Origin: Nanobdellota archaeon
GTDB lineage: Archaea; Nanobdellota; Nanobdellia; CSSed11-243R1
Assembly (NCBI GenBank): GCA_021162365.1
Contig: JAGGYW010000001.1
Location: 2,906-66,905, forward strand
Direction of reading: 5' to 3'
Length of the DNA: 64,000 nucleotides
This document shows, piece by piece, positions 1,559 through 41,488 of the stretch. The notes beneath the pieces were generated by a model. It did no database searches. It was given only the letters and a program-made list of their open reading frames with translations, and was not told the origin of the DNA. A program made the position numbers and the translations under genes. Each line of letters starts with the position of its first letter. Within the stretch, counting starts at the first letter, position 1.

Positions 1559-1835
1559 ATACTGTCCGTATTGCAAGAAAAAGACAAAGCACAAATTAGT
1601 GCAAGTGAAGTCTGGCAAGAAAAGAGGTAAGTTAACGATAGGTGCAAGAAGGTATGAAAGAAAAATTGAAGGATATACTGGATTTCCAAGACCTAAGCCT
1701 GAAAATTCAAAGAAATGGGGCGTTAAGCTTACAAAAAAGGTTGATTTAAGATACAAATGCACCGAATGTGGAAAGATGCATATTCGCAAGCAAGGATTTA
1801 GAGTTAAAAAATTAGAGATGGTGGGTGCTAAATAA
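1533..1835 (+). CDS. rpl44e: 50S ribosomal protein L44e (eL42)
   Basis: [21 protein letters not shown]...KCTECGK zinc-ribbon signature. The internal ATG at 1533 is preferred over the tracked start at 1509. Confidence 0.85.
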
Positions 1836-2020
1836 TGGAACTCATAAGTTATCCAAAAAGCAGATTTATTAAGGTGAAGTGCAATAAATGCAAGAACGAG
1901 CAAATTATATTCGGAAAGTCAGCTTCTGAGATAAAGTGCCTTGTTTGTGGCAATGTGCTTGCCATTCCAACAGGCGGAAAAACAAAAATCAAAGCAAAAG
2001 TTCTTGAAGTTCTCGAATGA
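1835..2020 (+). CDS. rps27e: 30S ribosomal protein S27e
   Basis: 61 aa with the [11 protein letters not shown]...CLVCG zinc ribbon. Conserved L44e-S27e-aIF2alpha gene order. Confidence 0.85.
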
Positions 2021-2021
2021 C

Positions 2022-2061
2022 TTTTTTTCTTTAGAAAAGAAAAACCTCAACTAAAAAGAAA
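2022..2061 (+). repeat. Py-hairpin + mirror purine module (copy E8)
   Basis: TTTTTCTTT (2024-2032), loop AGA, AAAGAAAAA (2036-2044), spacer CCTCAACT, AAAAAGAAA (2053-2061). The last tract is an exact mirror of the purine arm. The module starts 2 nt after the S27e stop. Confidence 0.75.
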
Positions 2062-2074
2062 CACTTTCTCTCTA

Positions 2075-2111
2075 CCTTCTTTTCCCTCAAGGCTTTTCTT
2101 CTTAAGAAAAG
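2075..2111 (-). repeat. Py-hairpin + mirror purine module (copy E9, opposite orientation)
   Basis: Minus strand reads AAGCC-CTTTTCTT-AAG-AAGAAAAG-CCTTGAG-GGGAAAAGAAGG. It is near-identical to the tRNA-Tyr and tRNA-Pro T-arm introns (22719-22767, 16987-17040). Confidence 0.75.
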
Positions 2112-2131
2112 GCTTGTAAGTGCTCGCAAAA

Positions 2132-2143
2132 CATTTATAATAC
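2132..2143 (+). promoter_or_regulatory. TATA-box candidate for aIF2alpha operon (leaderless spacing)
   Basis: CATTTATAATAC is centred about 27 nt upstream of the ATG at 2164. No Shine-Dalgarno sequence lies in between. Confidence 0.4.
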
Positions 2144-2163: not shown

Positions 2164-2958
2164 ATGTATTTCAAGAAAGAAGGAAAGCCGGAAGTGGGAG
2201 AATTAGTGCTTTGCACTGTAAAGAAGATTTTACCGCACGCCGCGTTTGTCATATTAGATGAATATAATAACTTAGAAGCCATGCTTCATGTTTCTGAAAT
2301 TTCTTCAAGGTGGGTTAAAAATATTAAAGACCATATATCTCAGGGAAAGAAAATTGTCTGCAAAGTTCTTGAAGTAAAGCCAAATGGGCACATTGATGTG
2401 TCTTTAAAAAGGGTGACAAGTGCTGAAACAAAAAGGAAGCTAAACGAAATTAAAGCAGAGCAAAGAATGGAGAAGCTTATAGAGGCAATTGCAAGGAAGT
2501 TTAAGGAAGATCCAAAGAAGAGCTTGGAGAAAATTGGAAGTATCATTCTTGAGGAATTTGACACTCTTGCTGACTTCTCGGATGAAATTAAGAGAGAAGG
2601 ACCTGAAATAATTAAAGAGCTTGATTTGCCTAAGAAGTGGAAAGATGAGCTTTACAATCAGATATCAGAACAGCTGAAGGCTCAGATGGTTAAGTTATGC
2701 AGAATAATTGAAGTTAGCTGTCAAGAGGGCGACGCAGTTCTTCGCATAAGAAAAATATTTGAGAAGATGTATGACTTTGCAAAGAAGGAAGGCATTGAAA
2801 TGAAGATTAAGTATATATCCTCCCCTAAATATTCCTTTGAGATATCAGTTAAGAATTATAAATTAGGAGAATCTTTCCTTGAGAAATTGTTTAAAAATAT
2901 GGAAAAATATAGTTCAAAACAAAATGTATTATTTAAAGTTGTAGGTCCGTGCAAATGA
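2164..2958 (+). CDS. eif2a: Translation initiation factor aIF-2 alpha subunit
   Basis: N-terminal S1 domain (GELVLCTVKKILPHAAFVILDEY..LHVSEISSRWVKNI). Length and operon context fit. Confidence 0.85.
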   Translation: MYFKKEGKPEVGELVLCTVKKILPHAAFVILDEYNNLEAMLHVSEISSRWVKNIKDHISQGKKIVCKVLEVKPNGHIDVSLKRVTSAETKRKLNEIKAEQRMEKLIEAIARKFKEDPKKSLEKIGSIILEEFDTLADFSDEIKREGPEIIKELDLPKKWKDELYNQISEQLKAQMVKLCRIIEVSCQEGDAVLRIRKIFEKMYDFAKKEGIEMKIKYISSPKYSFEISVKNYKLGESFLEKLFKNMEKYSSKQNVLFKVVGPCK

Positions 2959-3131: not shown

Positions 3132-3889
3132 GTGAAGCTTTCATAGTTAAAAAAATTGGAAGGAAACCAAGACTTAAGAAGCCAATTTTAATAGAGGGTC
3201 TTCCAGGCGTTGGAAATGTTGCAAGAATTGTTGTTGATGTTTTAATTGATAAATTAAAGGCTAAGAAGTTCCTTGAAGTTTATTCTTACTACTTTCCTAA
3301 TTCGGTTTTTTTAACTGGCGAGCACAAGCTAGAAATGCCAAAGCTTGAGTTTTATTATGCTAAAAGAAAAAAAGGAAGCGACCTTCTTTTTGTAGTCAGC
3401 GATGTCCAGCCCGGAGATGAATATGCTAGTTATGCTTTCTCAGATAAGATTTTAGAAATTGCAAAATCGCTTGGGGTGAAGGAAATTATAACCCTTGGTG
3501 GGATAACTTCAAAAGTGAATGTAGCTAAGCCAAATGTGTATGGCGCATTTACAGATAAGAAGTATGTTAACAAGCTGAAGAAAATTGGTGTGAGATTTGA
3601 TAGAAAAGGTTCTATTATATTAATTGGTGCAGCAGGGCTTCTTTTGGGGCTCGGTGAGTTAAAGGGAATGAAAGGATTTTCTTTGCTTGCAGAATCATTT
3701 GTTGGCTCAAAGATTGGCATTAATGCAGCTCGTCAGATAATTCTTGTTTTAGCTAAGTATCTTGGCATAAAAATTTCAGAGAAGGAGCTGTCATTTGAAG
3801 TTAATCTACCTCAAATACCCAGAATTGTAAGAAAAAGAACAACAAAAAAGGCAACAAAGCCCCAATTTAACCCAACATATATTGGGTGA
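3128..3889 (+). CDS. PAC2-family proteasome assembly chaperone-like protein
   Basis: PILIEGLPGVGNVARIVVDVLI N-terminus and about 250 aa length are typical of archaeal PAC2/COG1938 proteins. Conserved position after nop10. Confidence 0.6.
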   Translation: MSEAFIVKKIGRKPRLKKPILIEGLPGVGNVARIVVDVLIDKLKAKKFLEVYSYYFPNSVFLTGEHKLEMPKLEFYYAKRKKGSDLLFVVSDVQPGDEYASYAFSDKILEIAKSLGVKEIITLGGITSKVNVAKPNVYGAFTDKKYVNKLKKIGVRFDRKGSIILIGAAGLLLGLGELKGMKGFSLLAESFVGSKIGINAARQIILVLAKYLGIKISEKELSFEVNLPQIPRIVRKRTTKKATKPQFNPTYIG

Positions 3890-4828
3890 TTATCTTCCTC
3901 TTAATGTGGTATCTAATGTAGCAATATCTATGCAATATCCATGGTTTATTTCTGTCCTTAGTTGGTATATCTTTGTGCTTTCTTGGAACGCTGCTGGGTT
4001 TGTCGGTTCAATATTCATTTTTAGGAACAACTCCTTTCCTTGGATGAGTTTTAATAAGTATTTGTATTCTCCAACATTATCCGATGTGATTACTAGTGAT
4101 TTACCATCATCGCTGAGCCAATCGCCAAGCTCGCTTTTACTTAATCCACCGAATTTTGTAATTTCAATATTGTCTCCAATTAATGTTATGTTGATCTTTC
4201 TAATTGTATTTAGCGATAAATTATTTGAATAGTTTATATAATCTACCCATCCAGGCCCCACGTTTTTGATTATAATTTGTCCGCTTAATGTGTTTTCATC
4301 GCTGTCTGGGATTACTCTATCAACTCCGAAATTGTAGGCAATATCTAAGAAGTCGCTTGAAACATAGCGACTTGGTGATGGTGGGACATCGTTATAGTCT
4401 CCTGGTATAAACACTAAATCGGTGTATCCTTTTGAGTTGTAATCAAAGCATATTCTAATTGTTGTTGGGCAGTTTATCCTTTCTCCTTCTCCCATCTCTG
4501 GAGCTCTAACATCCCAACTCATATACCTCTGGTTGTTTGGTAGAATTTCATCAACATATGCATCTTCTGCTTCAAGACAACCAAGAATTCTACCTGTAAC
4601 ATTTTCTATTGGGTTTACACCTGTGTTTTTGATTTTTATTCCTATTTGGGCATTTTGATTAGATACTAAGTTGAGTGTGTTTGTTTTTACTCCATTAACA
4701 AGGATTGTTGCATTTAATGTCCCCACTCCTTGTTCTCCACTCCCTTCTTCTTTTTTACCACCTATACATCCGAAAGTTAAAGCTAATAAAAATAATAAAG
4801 AAAATGCCAACAAAGCTTTTTTATTCAC
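3890..4828 (-). CDS. Secreted lipoprotein-like surface protein (paralog 3 of 3)
   Basis: Signal peptide ends in LALTFGCIGG (lipobox-like). It shares the W.V.APE....I.ICFDY and C-terminal YC.DI motifs with the 4840-5709 protein. Confidence 0.6.
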   Translation of the reverse strand: MNKKALLAFSLLFLLALTFGCIGGKKEEGSGEQGVGTLNATILVNGVKTNTLNLVSNQNAQIGIKIKNTGVNPIENVTGRILGCLEAEDAYVDEILPNNQRYMSWDVRAPEMGEGERINCPTTIRICFDYNSKGYTDLVFIPGDYNDVPPSPSRYVSSDFLDIAYNFGVDRVIPDSDENTLSGQIIIKNVGPGWVDYINYSNNLSLNTIRKINITLIGDNIEITKFGGLSKSELGDWLSDDGKSLVITSDNVGEYKYLLKLIQGKELFLKMNIEPTNPAAFQESTKIYQLRTEINHGYCIDIATLDTTLRGR

Positions 4829-4839
4829 TTTTTACCACC

Positions 4840-5709
4840 TTAGCATCTTTGACCTACGGGGCACACTGTAATTGTTCCCATTGGTATCTCATAGCAGTAT
4901 GTGTAGTTGATTTCCCCGTTTGTTCTTTCTACCTTTATGTCACTTCCATCGTAATCTGTGGTTATCTTTACTGTTGCAGTTAATCCATCTCCAATTGCTA
5001 GTTTGTTTTCTAAGATGTCACAGTTGGTATCTTCTGGCTTTATCGATGTTGTTGTATCATTTCCACATTTTGCATATTTCACTCCCTCTGATGCAACATT
5101 CTCTGCCGGTGGTGTTATTTTTATTTCATTAATCCTTTCTATTCTCCCTTGCCAGTTATTCTGAATATTTAATGATCCTGTGGTGTAACTTGTTCCATCT
5201 TTAAGGAAAATTTTGTCTAGTCCAACTTGCGTTACTTTTATTGGTCCATTTGAATATCCACTTTGCACTTGTATTGCTTCAGTTACTTTATCTTTTGGAA
5301 CTAATGCTGTGTCAAAGTAGAAGTTTGTTACGTAATCAAAGCAGACTTCTATTTTTGGAGACACTGTTTGTTTTAAATCGGTTTCTGGTGCTTCAATTGT
5401 CCAAATGATTGGGTATTCTTGTCCTCTTGTTATAAGAATGCCTGTGTTTTCTTCAGGTGTCCCAAAGCTTGATGGTAAATCTTTTATTACAGCAGATAAA
5501 TCACTCATGTCATTGTCAAATATGTTCTTTAATCTTAATTCAACTGTTATGACTCCTCCCGCAATTACTGTTTTTGGATTTACATTAATTGTATAGCCAT
5601 TTCCCGCAGCAGTTTCGTTTTCTTCGCCACCGCCACCTATACATCCGAAGCTAAATGCTAATGCAAACAATGCAATTAAGACGATTATTCCCTCCTTTTT
5701 CATTTTCAT
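4840..5709 (-). CDS. Secreted lipoprotein-like surface protein (paralog 2 of 3)
   Basis: Signal peptide ends in LAFSFGCIGGGG. It carries the IIWTIEAPE...IEVCFDY and INYTYCYEI motifs, with several paired cysteines. Confidence 0.6.
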   Translation of the reverse strand: MKMKKEGIIVLIALFALAFSFGCIGGGGEENETAAGNGYTINVNPKTVIAGGVITVELRLKNIFDNDMSDLSAVIKDLPSSFGTPEENTGILITRGQEYPIIWTIEAPETDLKQTVSPKIEVCFDYVTNFYFDTALVPKDKVTEAIQVQSGYSNGPIKVTQVGLDKIFLKDGTSYTTGSLNIQNNWQGRIERINEIKITPPAENVASEGVKYAKCGNDTTTSIKPEDTNCDILENKLAIGDGLTATVKITTDYDGSDIKVERTNGEINYTYCYEIPMGTITVCPVGQRC

Positions 5710-5715
5710 TACCTC

Positions 5716-6885
5716 CTATATACCTCTAATTGGATATACAGTAATATAATCTTTTCCAATTGTGAAGTATCTATAAAATGCATAAACTTCGAAAGAGTAC
5801 ATTTTTACAGGGATATTATAATCCCTTAGGAATGTTCTCTCTTGGCCTGTCATCACAAATGGTGCATATATTGAAAATGAGTTCACAAAGTCTGTTCTAT
5901 TTATCTTTTTAATTAGTATGTGGTCAGCATTTTCTTCGAGTTTAGCATATTCTTCATCGCCAAGATTTGATTTTATCCAATCTTTACAGGGTATCTCCTG
6001 CTCTCCCAATTGATTGTCTCCCGTGTTACATATTTCATCAAATTCATCCCATTTGTACCATCCATATACTTTGTAGTTCGGCGTTCCCTCTGGAGCACTT
6101 TCATCCACATTTATTCCACTTTTTGGATATTCAAGTATTACAACAACATCAGAAATTGGGAATCCCTTCCCTTTATTTTCGACAAAGTATTGGGTTGCGA
6201 ATGAGAAATCTCCTTCTGCAGGTCCACCTGGTTGATTGTCAAAGAAATAAATTATTGGTTGTTGTGTTGAGCCAGAGAATCTTAATTCACCTGCAGTATT
6301 TCCTGACTCCCCAGAGATCATGTAATCTTCGCCTGCCTGTTTTCTTTTTATCATTTCACTTTGGGACATGAATACTATATTTTGGCGGAATTTAACTTTA
6401 TAATCATAAGATGTTGAATAGTATATTGGGTGTTTTAATGCGATGTCTGAAATTTCATCTTTGCCTGGGGCTTTCAATCTCCAGAAAACATTTATTTCTT
6501 CACCAGGTATCAATTTTCTAGTCGCGTGCATTCTAACAGGCATATCCTTATCTAGGTCAAGCTGACCAGTACATGTTCTTGGTTCATTTGGTTCTCTTTC
6601 CCCGCCGCATTCAACTATTGCGAATGGTTTAACATTATCAATTGCAATTATTACATTGCTTGCTCCCTCTCCCTCTAAGTTACTTCTTACATCAAGAGAA
6701 ATATATCCTTCTAATCCAGGGTGTAGTTCATCGAACTTCAATTTTCCAACAATGCCAACACCTTCTTCTACTTCCAGTTTTGTTTCATTTGCTGGCTGTG
6801 ACTCGCCTATGCATCCAAAAGTTAGGGCTAGTAAAAACAGCAATGATATAATGAATATTTCTTTTTTCATAATTAACCACCACAC
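5716..6885 (-). CDS. Secreted lipoprotein-like surface protein (paralog 1 of 3)
   Basis: Signal peptide ends in LALTFGCIGE. FWRLKAPGKDE...YYSTSYDY is a diverged form of the shared motif. An alternative start at 6870 (MKKEIF) would remove the overlap with the upstream gene. Confidence 0.55.
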   Translation of the reverse strand: MWWLIMKKEIFIISLLFLLALTFGCIGESQPANETKLEVEEGVGIVGKLKFDELHPGLEGYISLDVRSNLEGEGASNVIIAIDNVKPFAIVECGGEREPNEPRTCTGQLDLDKDMPVRMHATRKLIPGEEINVFWRLKAPGKDEISDIALKHPIYYSTSYDYKVKFRQNIVFMSQSEMIKRKQAGEDYMISGESGNTAGELRFSGSTQQPIIYFFDNQPGGPAEGDFSFATQYFVENKGKGFPISDVVVILEYPKSGINVDESAPEGTPNYKVYGWYKWDEFDEICNTGDNQLGEQEIPCKDWIKSNLGDEEYAKLEENADHILIKKINRTDFVNSFSIYAPFVMTGQERTFLRDYNIPVKMYSFEVYAFYRYFTIGKDYITVYPIRGI

Positions 6886-8276
6886 CCCGCTTGATTTTCA
6901 GTACAAAACGTATTAACTGTAACAGTTGAGGACTGAACCTCATAAGGATATGCTGCAATCGTAGTGATGTAATCTGTAACTACATCTTCATTTGTTGTTA
7001 TTTCTGGTATAGTTAGTGTGCATGTAAACACGTTAAATTCTTGAGTAAGATACGTTGTGCCACATACATGCATTTTTCCCTCTGCAGCCAAATCACATGC
7101 CCAATTTAGTACTGAAATAACATCTGGGAAGTAATCTTCAATGATGAGGCGCATATATCCATCCTCGGCGCACCAGCTATTAACTAGCTCGTCATCACAT
7201 ACTACACATCCAACATCGCTGCTGCAATCTACACTATTTGGATCATCATATTTATCATATCCGGCGGGTATGCAGCTGCCAAAATCTTTTGGAGTAACAA
7301 TGAATAAAATTGGGTCTTTTTTTGCTTTCATTTGCCCATTCCCAACATTCTGCCATCTTAATAGTAGTGCTGCGCTTCCAGAATCATCCAAGATTGGTTG
7401 GGCTCCAATGTCCATATCAATTGTCATGGCGGAGCCATATTTGTATGTGGCTCCCTTTGCTGTTTGTCTGAGTGCATTATTTCTTATCAATAGCAAGCCG
7501 AAATCGCTTTTTATCCTTTCAACTGCAAGGCGAGACGCAGTCGGATAGTATGTCCATGCAGTTGCTCTAACATAAACAGGTGTTTTTGTATTCGGCTTTA
7601 GTTTGTTGTCAATTACGTTATCCTTGATGCAATTAAGATCAACCCATCCGCCCGAGAATACAATTTCCTTTGTGGAGAAAGGTGCAATATTATCTACTTC
7701 TCTATCCAACCCACCTTCAAATTTTATACATCCACTGAAAGGTGGGAGTGAATCAAGATGGATATTCATTTTTTTGATCTTGCTGCTTCCTAGGTTGTTA
7801 ATTGTGACTATGAAGGTAAGTGCTTTTTGATCCATGACAACTGTATCTACACTTCCTCTTATGCTAATTGAAAATGCTTGGTTTGGTGGTGCTTTTGTTT
7901 TTTGTTCGGTTTCTTCATATTGCCCACCCGTTGGACCTATTCCGAATGGATTGGCTAACATGTTACTAAAACTTCTGAAGAGATAATTGTTGAATATGCC
8001 ACTAAATGTTTCGCTAATTCTGTATCCCAATCCTGATGTGGCTTGCCCCCCACCAACATTTATGAACCAAAAGTAAATTAAGAAACCTACAACAGCAATG
8101 ATGCCAATTATGACAAGAATCATGATTATTTTTCCCCAGTTAATTCCTCCGCCACCTATAGAGGGCATACTTGGTTTTTTCCCGCCCCCGGCACCACCCA
8201 TTGCTGCTTCGAGTGCCATTCCTTCGGGTGTGTCGGCGGCTACCGCCTCCAAAAGTTTCTTTTCGTCTTCGACCAA
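6873..8276 (-). CDS. Single-pass membrane protein with Gly-rich cytoplasmic N-terminus and Cys-rich ectodomain
   Basis: The TM segment IIMILVIIGIIAVVGFLIYFWFI follows GGAGGGKKPSMPSIGGGG. The ectodomain is large with many cysteines. Second gene of the five-gene operon. Confidence 0.55.
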   Translation of the reverse strand: MVEDEKKLLEAVAADTPEGMALEAAMGGAGGGKKPSMPSIGGGGINWGKIIMILVIIGIIAVVGFLIYFWFINVGGGQATSGLGYRISETFSGIFNNYLFRSFSNMLANPFGIGPTGGQYEETEQKTKAPPNQAFSISIRGSVDTVVMDQKALTFIVTINNLGSSKIKKMNIHLDSLPPFSGCIKFEGGLDREVDNIAPFSTKEIVFSGGWVDLNCIKDNVIDNKLKPNTKTPVYVRATAWTYYPTASRLAVERIKSDFGLLLIRNNALRQTAKGATYKYGSAMTIDMDIGAQPILDDSGSAALLLRWQNVGNGQMKAKKDPILFIVTPKDFGSCIPAGYDKYDDPNSVDCSSDVGCVVCDDELVNSWCAEDGYMRLIIEDYFPDVISVLNWACDLAAEGKMHVCGTTYLTQEFNVFTCTLTIPEITTNEDVVTDYITTIAAYPYEVQSSTVTVNTFCTENQAGCGG

Positions 8277-16807: not shown

Positions 16808-17066
16808 GGGGCCGTGGTCTAGAAACCCTTTCTTCCCGAAGAAAGCGTTTACGGAAAGAAGGGAAAGTTGGACAACTTGGTCTAGGATGCGTGCCTGGGG
16901 GCACCCTTTCCGCCTTCTTTAGAAAAGAAGGTAGGTTGCCAAGAAAGGGAAAGAAAGGGTAGTCCGGAACGCACGTGGTCCCGAGTAAGCCTTTTCTTTG
17001 GAAAGAAAAGCCTTAAGGGAAAAGAAACCAGGATGGGCTTCGGGAGTTCAAATCTCGGCGGCCCCA
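16808..17066 (+). tRNA. tRNA-Pro (GGG) with three introns (D-loop, anticodon loop, T-arm 53/54)
   Basis: Acceptor GGGGCCG/CGGCCCC+A. D stem GTCT/GGAT. Anticodon stem CGTGC/GCACG with loop CTGGGG. T arm CCGAG-TTCAAAT-CTCGG. Approximate introns 16823-16878, 16901-16969 and 16986-17046 leave a 73-nt mature tRNA. Confidence 0.8.
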
Positions 17067-22631: not shown

Positions 22632-22787
22632 CCCGGCGTAGCTCAATGGTAGAGCGCACGGCTGTAGTGGGATGATGGAGAAATCCATCGTTGAAACCGT
22701 GAGGTTGCTGGTTCGACCAAGCCTTTCTTCCCGAAGAAAGCCTTGAGGGAAAGAAGGGGAGAGGCTTCGAGTTTCCGGCCGCCGGGA
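22632..22787 (+). tRNA. tRNA-Tyr (GTA) with two introns (37/38 and T-loop 58/59)
   Basis: Acceptor CCCGGCG/CGCCGGG+A. D arm GCTC-AATGGTA-GAGC. Anticodon stem CACGG/CCGTG with loop CTGTAG. T arm GCTGG-TTCGA..TT-CCGGC. Approximate introns 22668-22695 and 22717-22772. Confidence 0.8.
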
Positions 22788-22831: not shown

Positions 22832-23066
22832 GCCCCGATAGTCTAGCGACCTTTTCTCCCGAGAAAAGCTCGACCAAAAGAGGGAGAAAAGAGCGGACAA
22901 TGGCCTAGGATCCCGGTCTGTCGAGCGGCCCTTCTTAGAAAGAAGCGCCGGCGGAAGAAATTCCGGGAGTGCAGTAAGCCGGGGACCCGGGACACCTTTT
23001 CTTTCAAAAAGAAAAGCTGTACCAAAAGAAAGGGAAGGTGCGGGAATTCAAATCCCGGTCGGGGCG
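22832..23066 (+). tRNA. tRNA-Asp (GTC) with three introns (D-loop, anticodon loop, T-arm 53/54)
   Basis: Acceptor GCCCCGA/TCGGGGC+G. D stem GTCT/GGAT. Anticodon stem CCGGT/GCCGG with loop CTGTCG. T arm CCGGG-TTCAAAT-CCCGG. Approximate introns 22848-22901, 22925-22977 and 22992-23046 leave a 73-nt mature tRNA. Confidence 0.8.
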
Positions 23067-38717: not shown

Positions 38718-38762
38718 TTACCTTGAAGCAGCTGCCTGTCTTTGCACTTTTTCTTTAGAAAA
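38718..38762 (-). pseudogene. Orphan duplicate of the S7 gene 3' end (15 codons incl. stop)
   Basis: Minus strand reads ttt tct aaa gaa aaa gtg caa aga cag gca gct gct tca agg taa (FSKEKVQRQAAASR*). The true S7 end is ISKKTEVERQAAASR* at 38803-38850. Most differences are third-position and synonymous. Confidence 0.65.
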
Positions 38763-38787
38763 GAAAACCTGCACTAAAAGAAAAAGG
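38748..38787 (+). repeat. Py-hairpin + mirror purine module (copy E10)
   Basis: TTTTCTTT (38749-38756), loop AGA, AAAGAAAA (38760-38767), spacer CCTGCACT, AAAAGAAA (38776-38783, exact mirror). The pyrimidine arm is contributed by the S7 3'-end duplicate. Confidence 0.7.
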
Positions 38788-38802: not shown

Positions 38803-39399
38803 TTACCTTGACGCTGCAGCTTGTCTTTCTACTTCTGTTTTCTTTGAAATTGCAAATGATTTTGGATCTTCCTTGCTTGCTGCAATTATTTCGTTTGCTA
38901 GCCCTTTCTCAATTGGCACTTTTTTATCGGCAACTGCTTGGAAAGCACCTTGAGTTAACCACCTTAAAGCCAAGTCAACTCTTCTTTGTGGTGAGGTATC
39001 AACTTGCTTTGGGACTCTTATTCCTCCGATTTCAATTACAGTGACCTCATCCCTTGGGGCTGCGTTTTCAACAGCTCTAACAAGAACTTCGACAGGATTT
39101 TGTTTGGTTTGCTTTTCAATTATTTCAAATGTTTTCTTTGTTATGTTGTAAACAGTTTGTGATTTTCCGGTACAGAACTCACTTGTCCTCCAGTGCTTCT
39201 TACCTTTGTGACCAGGGGACATAAGTTTGTTCATGAATCTTTCAACAATGTTAACATTACTTTTAGCAAACCTTGTGCTTGCATGTCTGCCATATGTTTG
39301 TGGGACAAAGAGAGGCTTTAAGTTTATAACACTCTTTAATCCAGGATCTTTGACTTCCACATTCGTATCATACTTCCCGAAAATTTTTATTTCCACCAT
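38803..39399 (-). CDS. rps7: 30S ribosomal protein S7
   Basis: 198 aa with typical archaeal S7 sequence (VERFMNKLM..GKK, VENAAPRDEV, RRVDLALRW). Confidence 0.9.
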   Translation of the reverse strand: MVEIKIFGKYDTNVEVKDPGLKSVINLKPLFVPQTYGRHASTRFAKSNVNIVERFMNKLMSPGHKGKKHWRTSEFCTGKSQTVYNITKKTFEIIEKQTKQNPVEVLVRAVENAAPRDEVTVIEIGGIRVPKQVDTSPQRRVDLALRWLTQGAFQAVADKKVPIEKGLANEIIAASKEDPKSFAISKKTEVERQAAASR

Positions 39400-39408
39400 C
39401 TTATCTCA

Positions 39409-39444
39409 CTTTTCTTTGGTTAATCTTTCTTTTTAAGAAAGATT
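39409..39444 (-). repeat. Py-hairpin + purine tract module (copy E11, imperfect mirror)
   Basis: Plus strand has a 10-bp hairpin AATCTTTCTT-TTT-AAGAAAGATT (39422-39444) overlapping the S12 stop. The minus strand continues TAACC-AAAGAAAAG. Confidence 0.55.
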
Positions 39445-40053: not shown

Positions 40054-41319
40054 ATGGCAGCAAAACCACACATAAATTTGGTCGTAATTGGTCACGTAGA
40101 CCATGGGAAGTCGACGATTGTAGGAAGATTACTTTATGAAACAGGTACAATCACCGAACAGGATATTGAAAGGTTAAAGAAAGAGGCAGCCGCCTTGGGT
40201 AAAGCCACATTCGAGTTTGCATATGTACTTGATGCAACTCGTGAAGAAAGAACAAGGGGTGTCACAATTGATTTGTCTCACATGAAATTCGAAACCCCAA
40301 AATATTACTTTACAATAATTGATGCACCTGGGCACAGAGACTTCATTAAAAACATGATTACAGGTGCGGCACAAGCAGATGCAGCTGTACTTGTAGTGGC
40401 TGCAAAAGAGGGTATCCAACCACAGACAAAGGAGCACGCATTCCTTGCGAAGGTTCTTGGAATTAAGCAGTTCATCGTTGCAATTAACAAAATGGATACA
40501 GTGGATTACAAAGAGGACGCATACAACCAAGTTAAGGCAGAGCTTGAAAAGTTCTTGAAGACAGCAGGGTTTAAGATAGACGAGATTACATTTGTGCCTG
40601 TGAGTGCATTAGAGGGTGAAAACGTAACAAAGAAGCTTGGAAAGATGCCATGGTGGAAGGGTCCAACATTGCTTGAAGCACTTGATGCACTTAAAGAGCC
40701 AGAAAAGCCAATTGACTTGCCACTTAGATTGCCAATACAAGATGTTTACTCAATTACAGGTATTGGTACAGTGCCTGTAGGAAGAGTTGAGACAGGTGTA
40801 ATGAAAGTTGGTCAGAAAGTTATCTTTGAGCCAGCAAATGTCTCAGGAGAAGTTAAGTCAATCGAAATGCACCATGAACAGATGCAGGAAGCAAAGCCAG
40901 GTGACAACATTGGTTTCAACGTGCGTGGTGTGACAAAAGAACAAATTAAGAGAGGAGATGTTGTTGGTCCAGTTGAAAACCCACCAACAGTTGCAAAAGA
41001 ATTCACAGCACAAATGGTTATCTTACACCACCCAACTGCAATTAGCAAGGGTTACACACCAGTATTGCACGCACACACAACACAAGTACCAGTTAAGTTT
41101 AAGGAATTGAAGCAAAAGCTTGATCCAAGAACAGGTCAAGTAGCACAAGAAAACCCAGACATGCTTAAGACAGGAGATGCAGCAGTTGTTGTGCTTGAAC
41201 CACAGAAGCCATTAGTAATTGAAAAGAGAAGCGAAATTCCAAAGCTTTCAAGCTTTGCAGTTAGAGACATGGGTGAAACAGTTGGTGCTGGCTTCGCAAT
41301 TGACATTGTGAAGCGCTAA
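40054..41319 (+). CDS. tuf: Translation elongation factor aEF-1 alpha
   Basis: [17 protein letters not shown] and NKMD G-domain motifs, 421 aa. Confidence 0.95.
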
Positions 41320-41340
41320 TTTCTTTCTTTACACTTTCTC
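41308..41340 (+). repeat. Direct repeat copy 1 (last 4 tuf codons + 3' flank)
   Basis: GTGAAGCGCTAATTTCTTTCTTTACACTTTCTC. It recurs at 41457-41488 with one indel and two mismatches. Confidence 0.7.
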
Positions 41341-41379
41341 TTTCTTTTCAAGAAAGAGAACCTGTGCTAAGAGAAAGAA
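41336..41379 (+). repeat. Py-hairpin + mirror purine module (copy E12)
   Basis: TTCTCTTTCTT (41336-41346), loop TTC, AAGAAAGAGAA (41350-41360), spacer CCTGTGCT, AAGAGAAAGAA (41369-41379). This is an exact 11-nt mirror with three matched G positions. Confidence 0.8.
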
Positions 41380-41397
41380 TCTTCTCCTTTGGTGCGA

Positions 41398-41450
41398 CTT
41401 TTCTTTTTTGATTTTTCTCTTTGGTAAAGCTTTTTCTTCCTAAGAAAAAG
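41398..41450 (-). repeat. Py-hairpin + purine tracts module (copy E13, opposite orientation, imperfect)
   Basis: Plus-strand hairpin CTTTTTCTT-CCT-AAGAAAAAG (41430-41450). The minus strand continues CTTTACC-AAAGAGAAAAA-TC-AAAAAAGAAAAG. Only the distal tract approximates the mirror. Confidence 0.5.
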
Positions 41451-41456
41451 GTTTTT

Positions 41457-41488
41457 GTGAAGCGCTAATCTTTTCTTTGCACTTTTTC
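41457..41488 (+). repeat. Direct repeat copy 2 (orphan copy of tuf 3' end + flank)
   Basis: GTGAAGCGCTAATCTTTTCTTTGCACTTTTTC lies 149 nt downstream of copy 1. Confidence 0.7.

Follow-up and report, generated by a model that had tools for sequence, protein, structure and literature searches.

Can one short sequence be both the core of a tRNA intron and a free insert between protein-coding genes? This question is raised by a 41-base module on the minus strand at 2075-2115 of a 64-kb stretch of DNA (hereafter, the window; GC content ~36%) from a DPANN archaeon of the Nanoarchaeota/Nanobdellota, a placement based on its aIF2alpha relatives. The module lies in the 143-nucleotide (nt) spacer between the genes for ribosomal protein S27e and aIF2alpha, which also holds a second module and a promoter, and it is antisense to both flanking genes. 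An initial annotation had described it as a close homolog of intron cores in two tRNA genes of the window, tRNA-Tyr (22719-22757) and tRNA-Pro (16987-17027). Judging from its sequence, we consider it probable (at about 0.6) that 2075-2115 is an intergenic copy of a DPANN-wide family of 30- to 47-nt repeats of the class II intrastrand triplex type, some copies of which have turned into introns.

The three strings quoted in the initial annotation occur in the sequence exactly as given, and several comparisons bore out their homology. MAFFT aligned the intergenic, Tyr, and Pro copies over ~46 nt, including a 5' CAAGCC (base 2116 is the C preceding AAGCC, and the tRNA-Tyr copy has it too) and a 3' GG-AGAG, and globally the intergenic copy agreed with the Tyr intron at 46/60 positions and with the Pro intron at 43/63. 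Likewise, perfect matches to the 13-mer GCCTTRAGGGAAA are confined to these three sites of the window. When the intergenic copy was compared with the window by BLAST, it matched the Pro intron at 23/24 positions (E = 2.9e-6, 40.1 bits) and the Tyr intron at 16/16 positions (32.2 bits), whereas the best matches of 200 shuffled queries averaged 23.9 bits and reached at most 32.2 bits. The compensatory indel reported in three arms is also present, i.e., relative to the Tyr copy, the intergenic copy has one extra T in the pyrimidine (Y) arm and one extra A in each of the two purine arms (Pu1 and Pu2). More specifically, in the order Tyr, intergenic, and Pro, the Y arm reads TTTCTT / TTTTCTT / TTTTCTTT, Pu1 reads AAGAAA / AAGAAAA / AAAGAAAA, and Pu2 reads AAAGAA / AAAAGAA / AAAAGAAA.

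The three arms follow one design. From 5' to 3', a module consists of the Y arm, a loop of 2 to 4 nt, Pu1 complementary to Y, a turn of 6 to 10 nt, and Pu2, which is the mirror image of Pu1 and neither its reverse complement nor a direct copy; at 2075-2115 (arms CTTTTCTT / AAGAAAAG / GAAAAGAA), the mirror is perfect over 8/8 positions. Because it mirrors Pu1, Pu2 could lie antiparallel on Pu1 in A.A-T and G.G-C triads, with the opposite strand offering the pyrimidine-motif counterpart of the design. By means of repeat and hairpin scans, we found ~13 such modules in the window compared to ~1 in block-shuffled sequence. Besides the three copies named in the initial annotation, these comprise a fourth close copy in the tRNA-Pro D-loop intron, a second module in the S27e-aIF2alpha spacer, and ~9 others elsewhere in the window. 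Of the eight tRNA introns of the window, seven have the design in their cores (in a looser form in the tRNA-Pro anticodon intron, and absent from the 37/38 intron of tRNA-Tyr), and it is also present at six intergenic sites adjoining the genes for S27e, S12, S7, and EF-1alpha, where 2021-2116 and 41336-41451 are tail-to-tail inverted pairs (Table 1).

To follow the family beyond the window, we scanned for the constant parts of its layout (AAGCC, Y arm, loop, purine arm, GCCTTRAGGG, mirrored purine arm) with the exact pattern AAGCCTTT-N6-18-AAGCCTTRAGGGAAA, and obtained matches in 75 stretches of species-representative genomes and 74 of metagenomes (~150 loci). Nearly all genome matches belong to Nanoarchaeia/Woesearchaeota, Aenigmatarchaeota, Micrarchaeota, or Altiarchaeota. 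Because just three positions at the start of each arm are fixed by the pattern, the remainder of an arm was free to vary, and 127 unique copies displayed 18 arm types, ranging from TTTT to TTTCTTTCTT (4 to 11 nt). Despite this variation, in 109 of 122 copies Pu2 opens with an exact mirror of Pu1, whereas permuting Pu2 among copies gave 49 such cases on average and 61 at most, and the purine run of Pu2 lengthens with the arm. In the 41 copies with asymmetric arms, Pu2 is the exact mirror 37 times and never a direct copy. Seven copies carry a mismatch between Y and Pu1, and in six of them Pu2 agrees with Pu1 rather than with Y. The turn is itself a mini-hairpin, the ends of which covary (CC-TTAA-GG, CCC-TC-GGG, CG-TGCA-CG, CG-TTGA-CG, and others). 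Mirror symmetry together with covariation is the signature expected of a Pu2 strand lying antiparallel along Pu1 of the Y:Pu1 duplex, and we infer that the arms are probably constrained by an intramolecular triplex. The three-strand constraint that had been proposed for three copies thus finds strong support across the family, which appears to make the comparative case for a three-stranded fold unusually clear. We rejected a kink-turn reading of GCC-UUGA-GGG, since half of the copies have A where such a fold requires G (GCCTTAAGGG).

Several members of the family deserve separate mention. Three pattern matches fell on contigs binned as bacterial: L051 (Thermodesulfatator) is an intron-bearing tRNA gene with a D-loop module, suggesting a mis-binned archaeal contig, and in L048 (Anaerotignaceae) and L081 (Acutalibacteraceae) the arms are degenerate and the match may be due to chance. 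Tandem arrays that repeat every 82 nt were observed in L055 (3002-3206), L044 (6906-7110), and L036 (44-85; Aenigmatarchaeota AUK155), in which an AAGCC...AAGCCTTAAGGGAAA unit with a 12-nt loop insert alternates with a 41-nt hairpin unit ending in AGCTCAGT; these arrays are not obviously CRISPR. In Woesearchaeota CAZSRE (L035, ~3200-3300; L025, ~900-1000; L033, ~2900-2990), two to four T4-arm modules stand in a row after stop codons and mix the turn classes GCCTTGAGGG, GCGTTAACGG, and GCGTTGACGG, reminiscent of the clusters of bacterial interspersed mosaic elements (BIMEs).

How the family resides in tRNA genes can be seen in the window, in which ARAGORN detected 0 tRNAs and Rfam placed only 1 above its gathering score. 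The genes escape both tools because they contain multiple introns, and we resolved them by hand parsing and by excising the introns before running ARAGORN. The tRNA-Pro, tRNA-Tyr, and tRNA-Asp genes, with two or three introns each, were all missed by ARAGORN and all scored below the Rfam gathering score. Excision restored a mature tRNA for the Tyr, Pro, and Asp copies, as expected of introns of the bulge-helix-bulge (BHB) type. For the 59/60 intron of tRNA-Tyr, the minimum free energy structure comprises the T-stem, a UUU bulge, pairing of exon UUCGA with intron UCGAG, a CCA bulge, and an inner helix AGCC/GGCU, i.e., a predicted BHB arrangement with bulges of 3 nt each. This fold places the intron at 59/60, so AAGCC would follow immediately upon the 5' splice site as the opening strand of the inner helix. 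In the same gene, the canonical 37/38 intron (22667-22694; tgggATGATGGagaaatccatcgtTGAa) has no pyrimidine-purine-mirror purine (Y-R-R') module; it has a box C-like AUGAUG and a UGA, and is kept in two relatives (L004 and L006).

From the family members, we excised the module together with 0 to 49 nt on its 3' side and ran ARAGORN across each junction. At least 22 copies yielded a sense-strand tRNA, with insertions in the D-loop, anticodon loop, or T-loop of many isotypes, and a T-loop heuristic put 36 of 136 copies (about a quarter) in a sense tRNA context, with few apparent antisense cases. A downstream GGCTT closing strand was rejected as a general mark of tRNA-borne copies (5/36 versus 9/91). 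The other ~90 family members lie outside tRNA genes, mostly in intergenic positions and often 0 to 35 nt from a stop codon or just ahead of a start codon, next to genes that include S27e, S12, S7, EF-1alpha, uL16-like, and S11-like genes. Arms are long in intronic copies (median, 8 nt), whereas short T4 forms predominate among the others. Relative to flanking genes that run in one direction, 22 intergenic copies are co-oriented and 11 are anti-oriented (p = 0.08, not significant), and 2075-2115 belongs to the anti-oriented minority. Thus, the report that one short sequence exists both as a tRNA intron and as a free intergenic insert holds for the family at large, with intergenic copies in either orientation. 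At one locus (L020, 5700-5790), an upstream copy of a 21-nt gene start forms, with the module, a 24-codon open reading frame (ORF), the TGA of which overlaps the ATG of the real gene (ATGA); there, the G-rich end of the module lies at Shine-Dalgarno distance.

Which of the two residences applies to 2075-2115? A BHB motif, which the initial annotation had suggested seeking around intergenic copies, is lacking there: ViennaRNA, which covers Watson-Crick and GU pairs and cannot model triplexes, predicted a plain Y:Pu1 hairpin with an unpaired Pu2 tail on both strands, and the GGCTT-type closing strand (GGCTTCGNG) of the Tyr and Pro introns is not present at 2075-2115. Rfam returned no match for 2075-2115, tRNA included, even at E<=1, and alignment detected no resemblance of its flanks to tRNA exons. 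As it has neither tRNA exons nor BHB closure, 2075-2115 is, by these sequence features, an intergenic member of the family and neither an intron nor a tRNA relic.

Orthologous loci of relatives differ in occupancy, and the modules of the S27e-aIF2alpha spacer, tRNA-Tyr, and tRNA-Pro are therefore not fixed at identical positions in all relatives. Spacers between S27e and aIF2alpha range from 67 to 377 nt in relatives and have different occupants (Table 1). The same-species contig L002 is identical to the window over the 88 bases of their overlap and so carries the minus-strand module. The spacer is a general insertion hot spot, as indicated by the VapB-like antitoxin/PemK insert in L083. Its TATA context aaaacatttataata is kept in L001, L003, L082, and L085, and we take the TATA box at 2134-2141 to be the aIF2alpha promoter. 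The locus downstream of EF-1alpha, which in the window consists of the gene end, a plus module, a minus module, and the gene end once more (the final ~14 nt of the gene plus a T-rich tail, duplicated at 41306-41334 and 41454-41481), likewise varies from an empty site to a differently oriented insert. Similarly, the 59/60 intron of tRNA-Tyr is of the AAGCC type in the window and L004 and of the GCACC type in L006. Between the window and L004, tRNA-Pro and tRNA-Asp have exchanged their D-loop introns, the Asp D-loop intron of the window being identical at 52/58 positions to the Pro D-loop intron of L004 and at 36/62 positions to its Asp counterpart. Within the window, the Pro D-loop intron matches the Tyr T-loop intron at 45/60 positions. 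In the Pro T-arm intron of L004, the two strands of the BHB inner helix have changed in a compensatory manner (AGCC/GGCT to GACC/GGTC), and L006 has an extra T-loop intron in tRNA-Pro. Occupied loci thus rearrange at a high rate.

Some copies are flanked by direct repeats. Among the first 85 family members, 12 had flanking direct repeats of >=11 nt, compared to 3 of 400 control positions, with examples of 21 nt in L020 (the start of the downstream ORF), 30 nt in L032, and 24 nt in L072, and L014 has AAAATGGCA(TCAT) three times around two modules. In the window, ~31 nt of the S7 3' end recur imperfectly on the other side of the module at 38749-38783 (38719-38749 and 38803-38833), where the gene's ending (...VERQAAASR*) has a pseudo-copy (...VQRQAAASR*). 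We rejected target-site duplication as the origin of all such repeats, since those at 41306/41454 and 38719/38803 include the module's own GCAC flank. These repeats and the tandem units of L085 indicate module-associated tandem duplication besides, or instead of, target-site duplication.

Table 1. Features of the window and orthologous loci of relatives. Percentages given with aIF2alpha are identities of that gene.
Feature or locus	Position	Strand	Description
Ribosomal protein S27e gene	1835..2020	+	upstream flank; PF01667, E = 3.3e-23
Partner module	2021..2061	+	tail-to-tail with 2075-2115; begins 1 nt past S27e stop codon; Y arm (C)TTTTTTTCTTT, loop AGA, Pu1 AAAGAAAAA, spacer CCTCAACT, Pu2 AAAAAGAAA; mirror 9/9
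Module 2075-2115	2075..2115	-	intergenic; no tRNA exons, no BHB closure
AAGCC flank of module	2115-2111	-	
Y arm of module	2110-2104	-	TTTTCTT
First loop of module	2103-2101	-	AAG
Pu1 of module	2100-2094	-	AAGAAAA
Turn of module	2093-2084	-	GCCTTGAGGG
Pu2 of module	2083-2075	-	AAAAGAAGG
TATA box	2134..2141	+	TTTATAAT; 18 nt from module; preceded by A-rich GCAAAAC resembling a TFB recognition element (BRE)
aIF2alpha gene	2164..2958	+	downstream flank; PF07541, PF00575
tRNA-Pro gene	16808..17066	+	three introns (D-loop, anticodon, T-arm)
tRNA-Pro D-loop intron, module core	16825-16863	+	fourth close copy; turn GCGTTTACGG
tRNA-Pro anticodon intron	around 16905-16960	+	looser variant of module
tRNA-Pro T-arm intron	about 16986-17046	+	AAGCC module at 16987-17027
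tRNA-Tyr(GUA) gene	22632..22787	+	two introns (37/38, 59/60); ARAGORN calls tRNA-Tyr after excision
tRNA-Tyr 59/60 T-loop intron	22718-22773	+	core 22719-22757 is an AAGCC module
tRNA-Asp(GUC) gene	22832..23066	+	three introns, Y-R-R' module in each
tRNA-Asp modules	22851-22882, 22931-22959, 22996-23031	+	turns of CTCGACC, CGCCGGCG, and CTGTACC types
Intergenic module, GCAC class	38749..38783	+	downstream of S7 gene
Module filling S12-S7 intercistronic spacer	39400..39443	-	same orientation as both genes
Inverted module pair downstream of EF-1alpha	41336..41451	both	+ 41336-41379 (11/11 mirror); - 41451-41400
S27e-aIF2alpha spacer, L002			aIF2alpha 99%, same species; last 86 nt before aIF2alpha start on contig
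S27e-aIF2alpha spacer, L001			aIF2alpha 79%; 85 nt; no recognisable AAGCC/GCCTTRAGGG module
S27e-aIF2alpha spacer, L003		+	aIF2alpha 74%; contig covers part; GCAC-class module abutting TATA box
S27e-aIF2alpha spacer, L083	830-1412		aIF2alpha 74%; large; inserted PemK/VapB-like toxin-antitoxin pair
S27e-aIF2alpha spacer, L082		both	aIF2alpha 73%; 231 nt; disrupted minus-strand AAGCC...AAGCCTTAAGGGAAAA element with 50-nt insert at hairpin position, and a plus-strand module
S27e-aIF2alpha spacer, L084			aIF2alpha 67%; 67 nt; no module
S27e-aIF2alpha spacer, L085	1113-1505	both	aIF2alpha 63%; 377 nt; about three tandem units of S27e 3' end (TTCTCAAGTAA), plus module, and minus module, the number being uncertain because of an N run
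EF-1alpha 3' locus, L160		-	95%; minus-strand module only
EF-1alpha 3' locus, L161	about 1575-1700		94%; perfect 28-nt direct repeat (TTGTGAAGCGCTGATTTCTTTCTTTTTT) around a 63-nt insert, its CCTGTGCT module inverted relative to window
EF-1alpha 3' locus, L162	about 4185-4260		89%; empty site

Elsewhere in the window (3890-7000), we noted tandem paralogous minus-strand genes that have a common, conserved N-terminal signal/lipobox-like segment (...FGCIGG), which shows up in the DNA as repeat family D2.

Full-text literature searches yielded no description of this motif family or of triplex-type tRNA introns; the design itself is already known. Intrastrand triplex motifs were defined by Hoyne & Maher 2000 and Holder et al. 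2015 (PMC4666352), and those of class II have a 5' pyrimidine domain, a purine domain, and a 3' reverse-Hoogsteen domain, their complement being of the pyrimidine-motif class (PMC4666352). The DPANN modules have these three blocks (Y, complementary R, and mirror R, at 8/8 in 2075-2115 and in 37/41 asymmetric family members), and the stem of 2075-2115 (7 to 8 nt) and its first loop (3 nt) fall within the class II ranges (stem, 6 to 15). Its second loop measures 8 nt (10 if counted as GCCTTGAGGG), against limits of 1 to 6 in ITxF and 0 to 10 nt in Hoyne; it is self-paired (CC/GG) and therefore effectively shorter.

The closest known system is the BoxC/PIT/TMECO element of E. coli (CCCTCNCCC-N3-6-GGGNGAGGG-N3-GGGNGAGGG), which is intergenic, has no strand bias and no linked transposase, forms five forward/reverse pairs (10 of its 23 copies), shows no promoter or terminator activity (PIT elements), and lies at loci that are more rearranged between strains (PMC4666352). 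The DPANN family resembles it in its class II single-strand design with a pyrimidine-motif complement, its length (~37 to 45 nt), its multiple intergenic copies in both orientations, its forward/reverse pairs (here, 2021-2116 and 41336-41451), its unstable, rearranged loci, and its lack of a linked transposase, so that, by analogy, all of the comparative features of BoxC/PIT/TMECO are paralleled. Five differences set the two apart: (i) the DPANN modules are A/T-rich (A.A-T triads and a single G.G-C), whereas BoxC/PIT/TMECO is G/C-rich; (ii) they are archaeal rather than proteobacterial or cyanobacterial; (iii) their arms vary while AAGCC and GCCTTRAGGG are constant, in contrast to TMECO, in which stems are conserved and loops vary; (iv) their second loop is a longer, self-paired turn; and (v) a quarter of the copies are tRNA introns, which is unreported for the bacterial elements (PMC4666352 makes no mention of tRNA or intron). 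By this analogy, the family is an archaeal, A/T-rich, intron-forming variant of the intrastrand-triplex repeats.

With respect to introns, the nearest parallel is in Thermoproteales, for which large-scale transposition of BHB tRNA introns has been inferred (Fujishima et al. 2010, as reported in PMC4033280). Both there and here, similar introns occur in different tRNAs and positions (D-loop, 59/60, and T-arm), genes have multiple introns, and intron content differs between relatives. The DPANN introns differ in lineage, in sequence family, in their defined three-arm design, and in that the family is abundant outside tRNA genes, which makes it a candidate intron source. Other comparisons were less close. 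Like the repetitive extragenic palindromic (REP) sequences, BIMEs, and REPINs, the modules are short hairpin extragenic repeats that lie in operon spacers in either orientation and form inverted doublets, but REPs are two-arm palindromes with a conserved GTAG, mobilised by REP-associated tyrosine transposases (RAYTs), and the modules have a third, mirror-symmetric arm. A preprint account of a REP-associated tyrosine transposase in one Pacearchaeales genome is a lead only. Homopurine/homopyrimidine mirror repeats (Pu1-spacer-Pu2) and triad rules are common to the modules and H-DNA; for H-DNA, a mirror repeat in duplex suffices, whereas the modules add a pyrimidine arm on the same strand, so that one strand alone can provide all three strands. 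We rejected classification as a miniature inverted-repeat transposable element (MITE), as the modules have no terminal inverted repeats and their flanking repeats are long and variable (13 to 30 nt) rather than short and of fixed length, and as an intrinsic terminator, since 2075-2115 does not have the features of one.

Taken as a triplex repeat, the module would have the following history. The constraint on its arms would act mainly on single-stranded DNA, as in BoxC/PIT/TMECO, exposed during replication or transcription. Repeats would be copied to new sites by a DNA-level process, possibly by insertion at long staggered breaks or by templated insertion or slippage at forks stalled by the structure, and the copying would often leave target duplications of 13 to 30 nt. 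Copies in tRNA genes would persist because their hairpin supplies the BHB inner helix, so that the broad-specificity splicing endonuclease could excise the copy, which becomes an intron, while intergenic copies would be tolerated in spacers by stop codons and promoters. The initial annotation had proposed a mobile, intron-like mini-element: locus polymorphism and flanking duplications point to movement, with no mobilising enzyme identified. Regarding its tie to the Tyr and Pro introns, the homology stands, but 2075-2115 need not derive from them, being one member of a large family. A further claim, that the modules are an active, structure-defined mini-element that makes tRNA introns de novo, rescued by BHB splicing, is one that we hold tentatively and at less than even odds.

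A number of observations weigh against the triplex-repeat reading. Approximately 85% of the copies have no recognisable flanking duplication, and some duplications take in part of the module, fitting tandem duplication better than target-site duplication. No transposase, integrase, or reverse transcriptase was found linked to the repeats in the loci examined, which were inspected without a systematic reverse transcriptase search, and viral contigs yielded no pattern match. The second loop of the family (8 to 10 nt) exceeds the 1 to 6 nt of ITxF, and single-stranded BoxC/PIT/TMECO forms a DNA triplex in vitro that was not detected in vivo in E. coli (PMC4666352). Furthermore, the sense orientation of tRNA-borne copies and the 22:11 lean of intergenic ones hint at an RNA-level or transcription-linked constraint, and a set of fifteen nucleotides that stays constant between phyla suggests some conserved function or trans-acting partner, not a repeat that is purely selfish. 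The main tension lies here: sense-only residence in tRNAs and the cross-phylum AAGCC/GCCUURAGGG keep an RNA-level role or a binding partner alive.

We consider it unlikely, though far from negligible, that the modules are instead RNA-level cis elements kept by function and not by mobility, i.e., protein sites, triple helices, or hairpins that end, insulate, or stabilise transcripts of highly expressed genes and, in introns, aid pre-tRNA folding or recognition. Constant motifs conserved across DPANN phyla, the sense orientation in tRNAs, and the position of copies 0 to 35 nt past stops or just before starts of S27e, S12, S7, EF-1alpha, uL16-like, and S11-like genes would all fit such an element, but 2075-2115 is antisense to both of its neighbours, the intergenic orientation bias is just 22:11, and orthologous spacers differ in occupancy. 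The partner at 2021-2061 opens with a T7 run directly after the stop codon, as in an archaeal terminator, yet 2075-2115 has no bacterial-type terminator (hairpin plus U run), the plus strand there having T4 runs only, short of the >=5 T of the archaeal type, and intronic copies are no different from the others in T-run length. Among the seven copies with a Y:Pu1 mismatch, five have T.G pairs, four of these with G in Pu2 as well, which would be wobble pairs in sense RNA; with seven informative cases, this comparison of T.G versus C.A as a test of RNA versus DNA is underpowered and too small to decide. In addition, PIT elements are inactive as promoters and terminators, and RNA is reported not to take part in purine-motif triplexes (Semerad & Maher 1994, as cited in PMC4666352); the account in an RNA triple-helix review has natural RNAs with isolated A.A-U and G.G-C triples only (PMC7583470), and long purine-motif triplexes are, as far as these accounts go, absent in RNA. 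A bolder variant explains the tRNA sense bias by a purine-motif triplex of 7 to 10 triads in RNA; if true, an extended R.R-Y triple helix would be known from a natural RNA for the first time.

An RNA route is sometimes invoked for intron transposition in Thermoproteales, and intergenic copies could correspondingly be retro-transposed tRNA introns (through reverse splicing, reverse transcription, and recombination). This we judge improbable. The same sequences do occur in several tRNAs and positions and between highly transcribed operon genes, flanking duplications of variable length and an A-rich 3' arm recall target-primed events, and CAAGCC and GG-AGAG are common to the intergenic copy and the Tyr intron beyond the core. 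However, intergenic copies have no 3' closing part, one third of them (2075-2115 included) are antisense to local transcription, and the loci examined as described above showed no reverse transcriptase. The short T4 arms outside tRNAs, set against the long intronic arms, also argue against simple intron copying.

That 2075-2115 is the last remnant of a decayed minus-strand, intron-bearing tRNA gene is very improbable: its closest relatives in the window are indeed tRNA introns, but there is no tRNA-like sequence on either side and no tRNA match at E<=1, the 143-nt spacer also houses another module and a promoter, and ~90 family members likewise lie outside tRNA genes. Chance resemblance of low-complexity purine and pyrimidine runs is a practically negligible explanation, since, although folding z-scores are unremarkable (and uninformative for such low-complexity sequence) and the Tyr match only equals the best shuffled-query match, the Pro match exceeds all 200 shuffles, the exact 13-mer is confined to the three sites, and the non-repetitive AAGCC and GCCTTRAGGG flanks recur at ~150 loci in several DPANN phyla.

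If the triplex-repeat reading holds, intrastrand-triplex repeats, so far characterised in detail in bacteria only, would extend to archaea. It would also bear on the origin of non-canonical archaeal tRNA introns, the transposition of which in Thermoproteales was inferred without a source or mechanism: the same repeat family occurs between genes and as the cores of D-loop, anticodon, and T-loop introns in several DPANN phyla, and its filled and empty sites, inversions, and intron swaps among close relatives make the question of intron origin testable. Multi-intron tRNA genes that escape ARAGORN, and mostly Rfam, may explain 'missing' tRNAs in surveys of Nanobdellota. Should the modules in fact make introns de novo, a source population for the gain of archaeal tRNA introns would have been identified for the first time.

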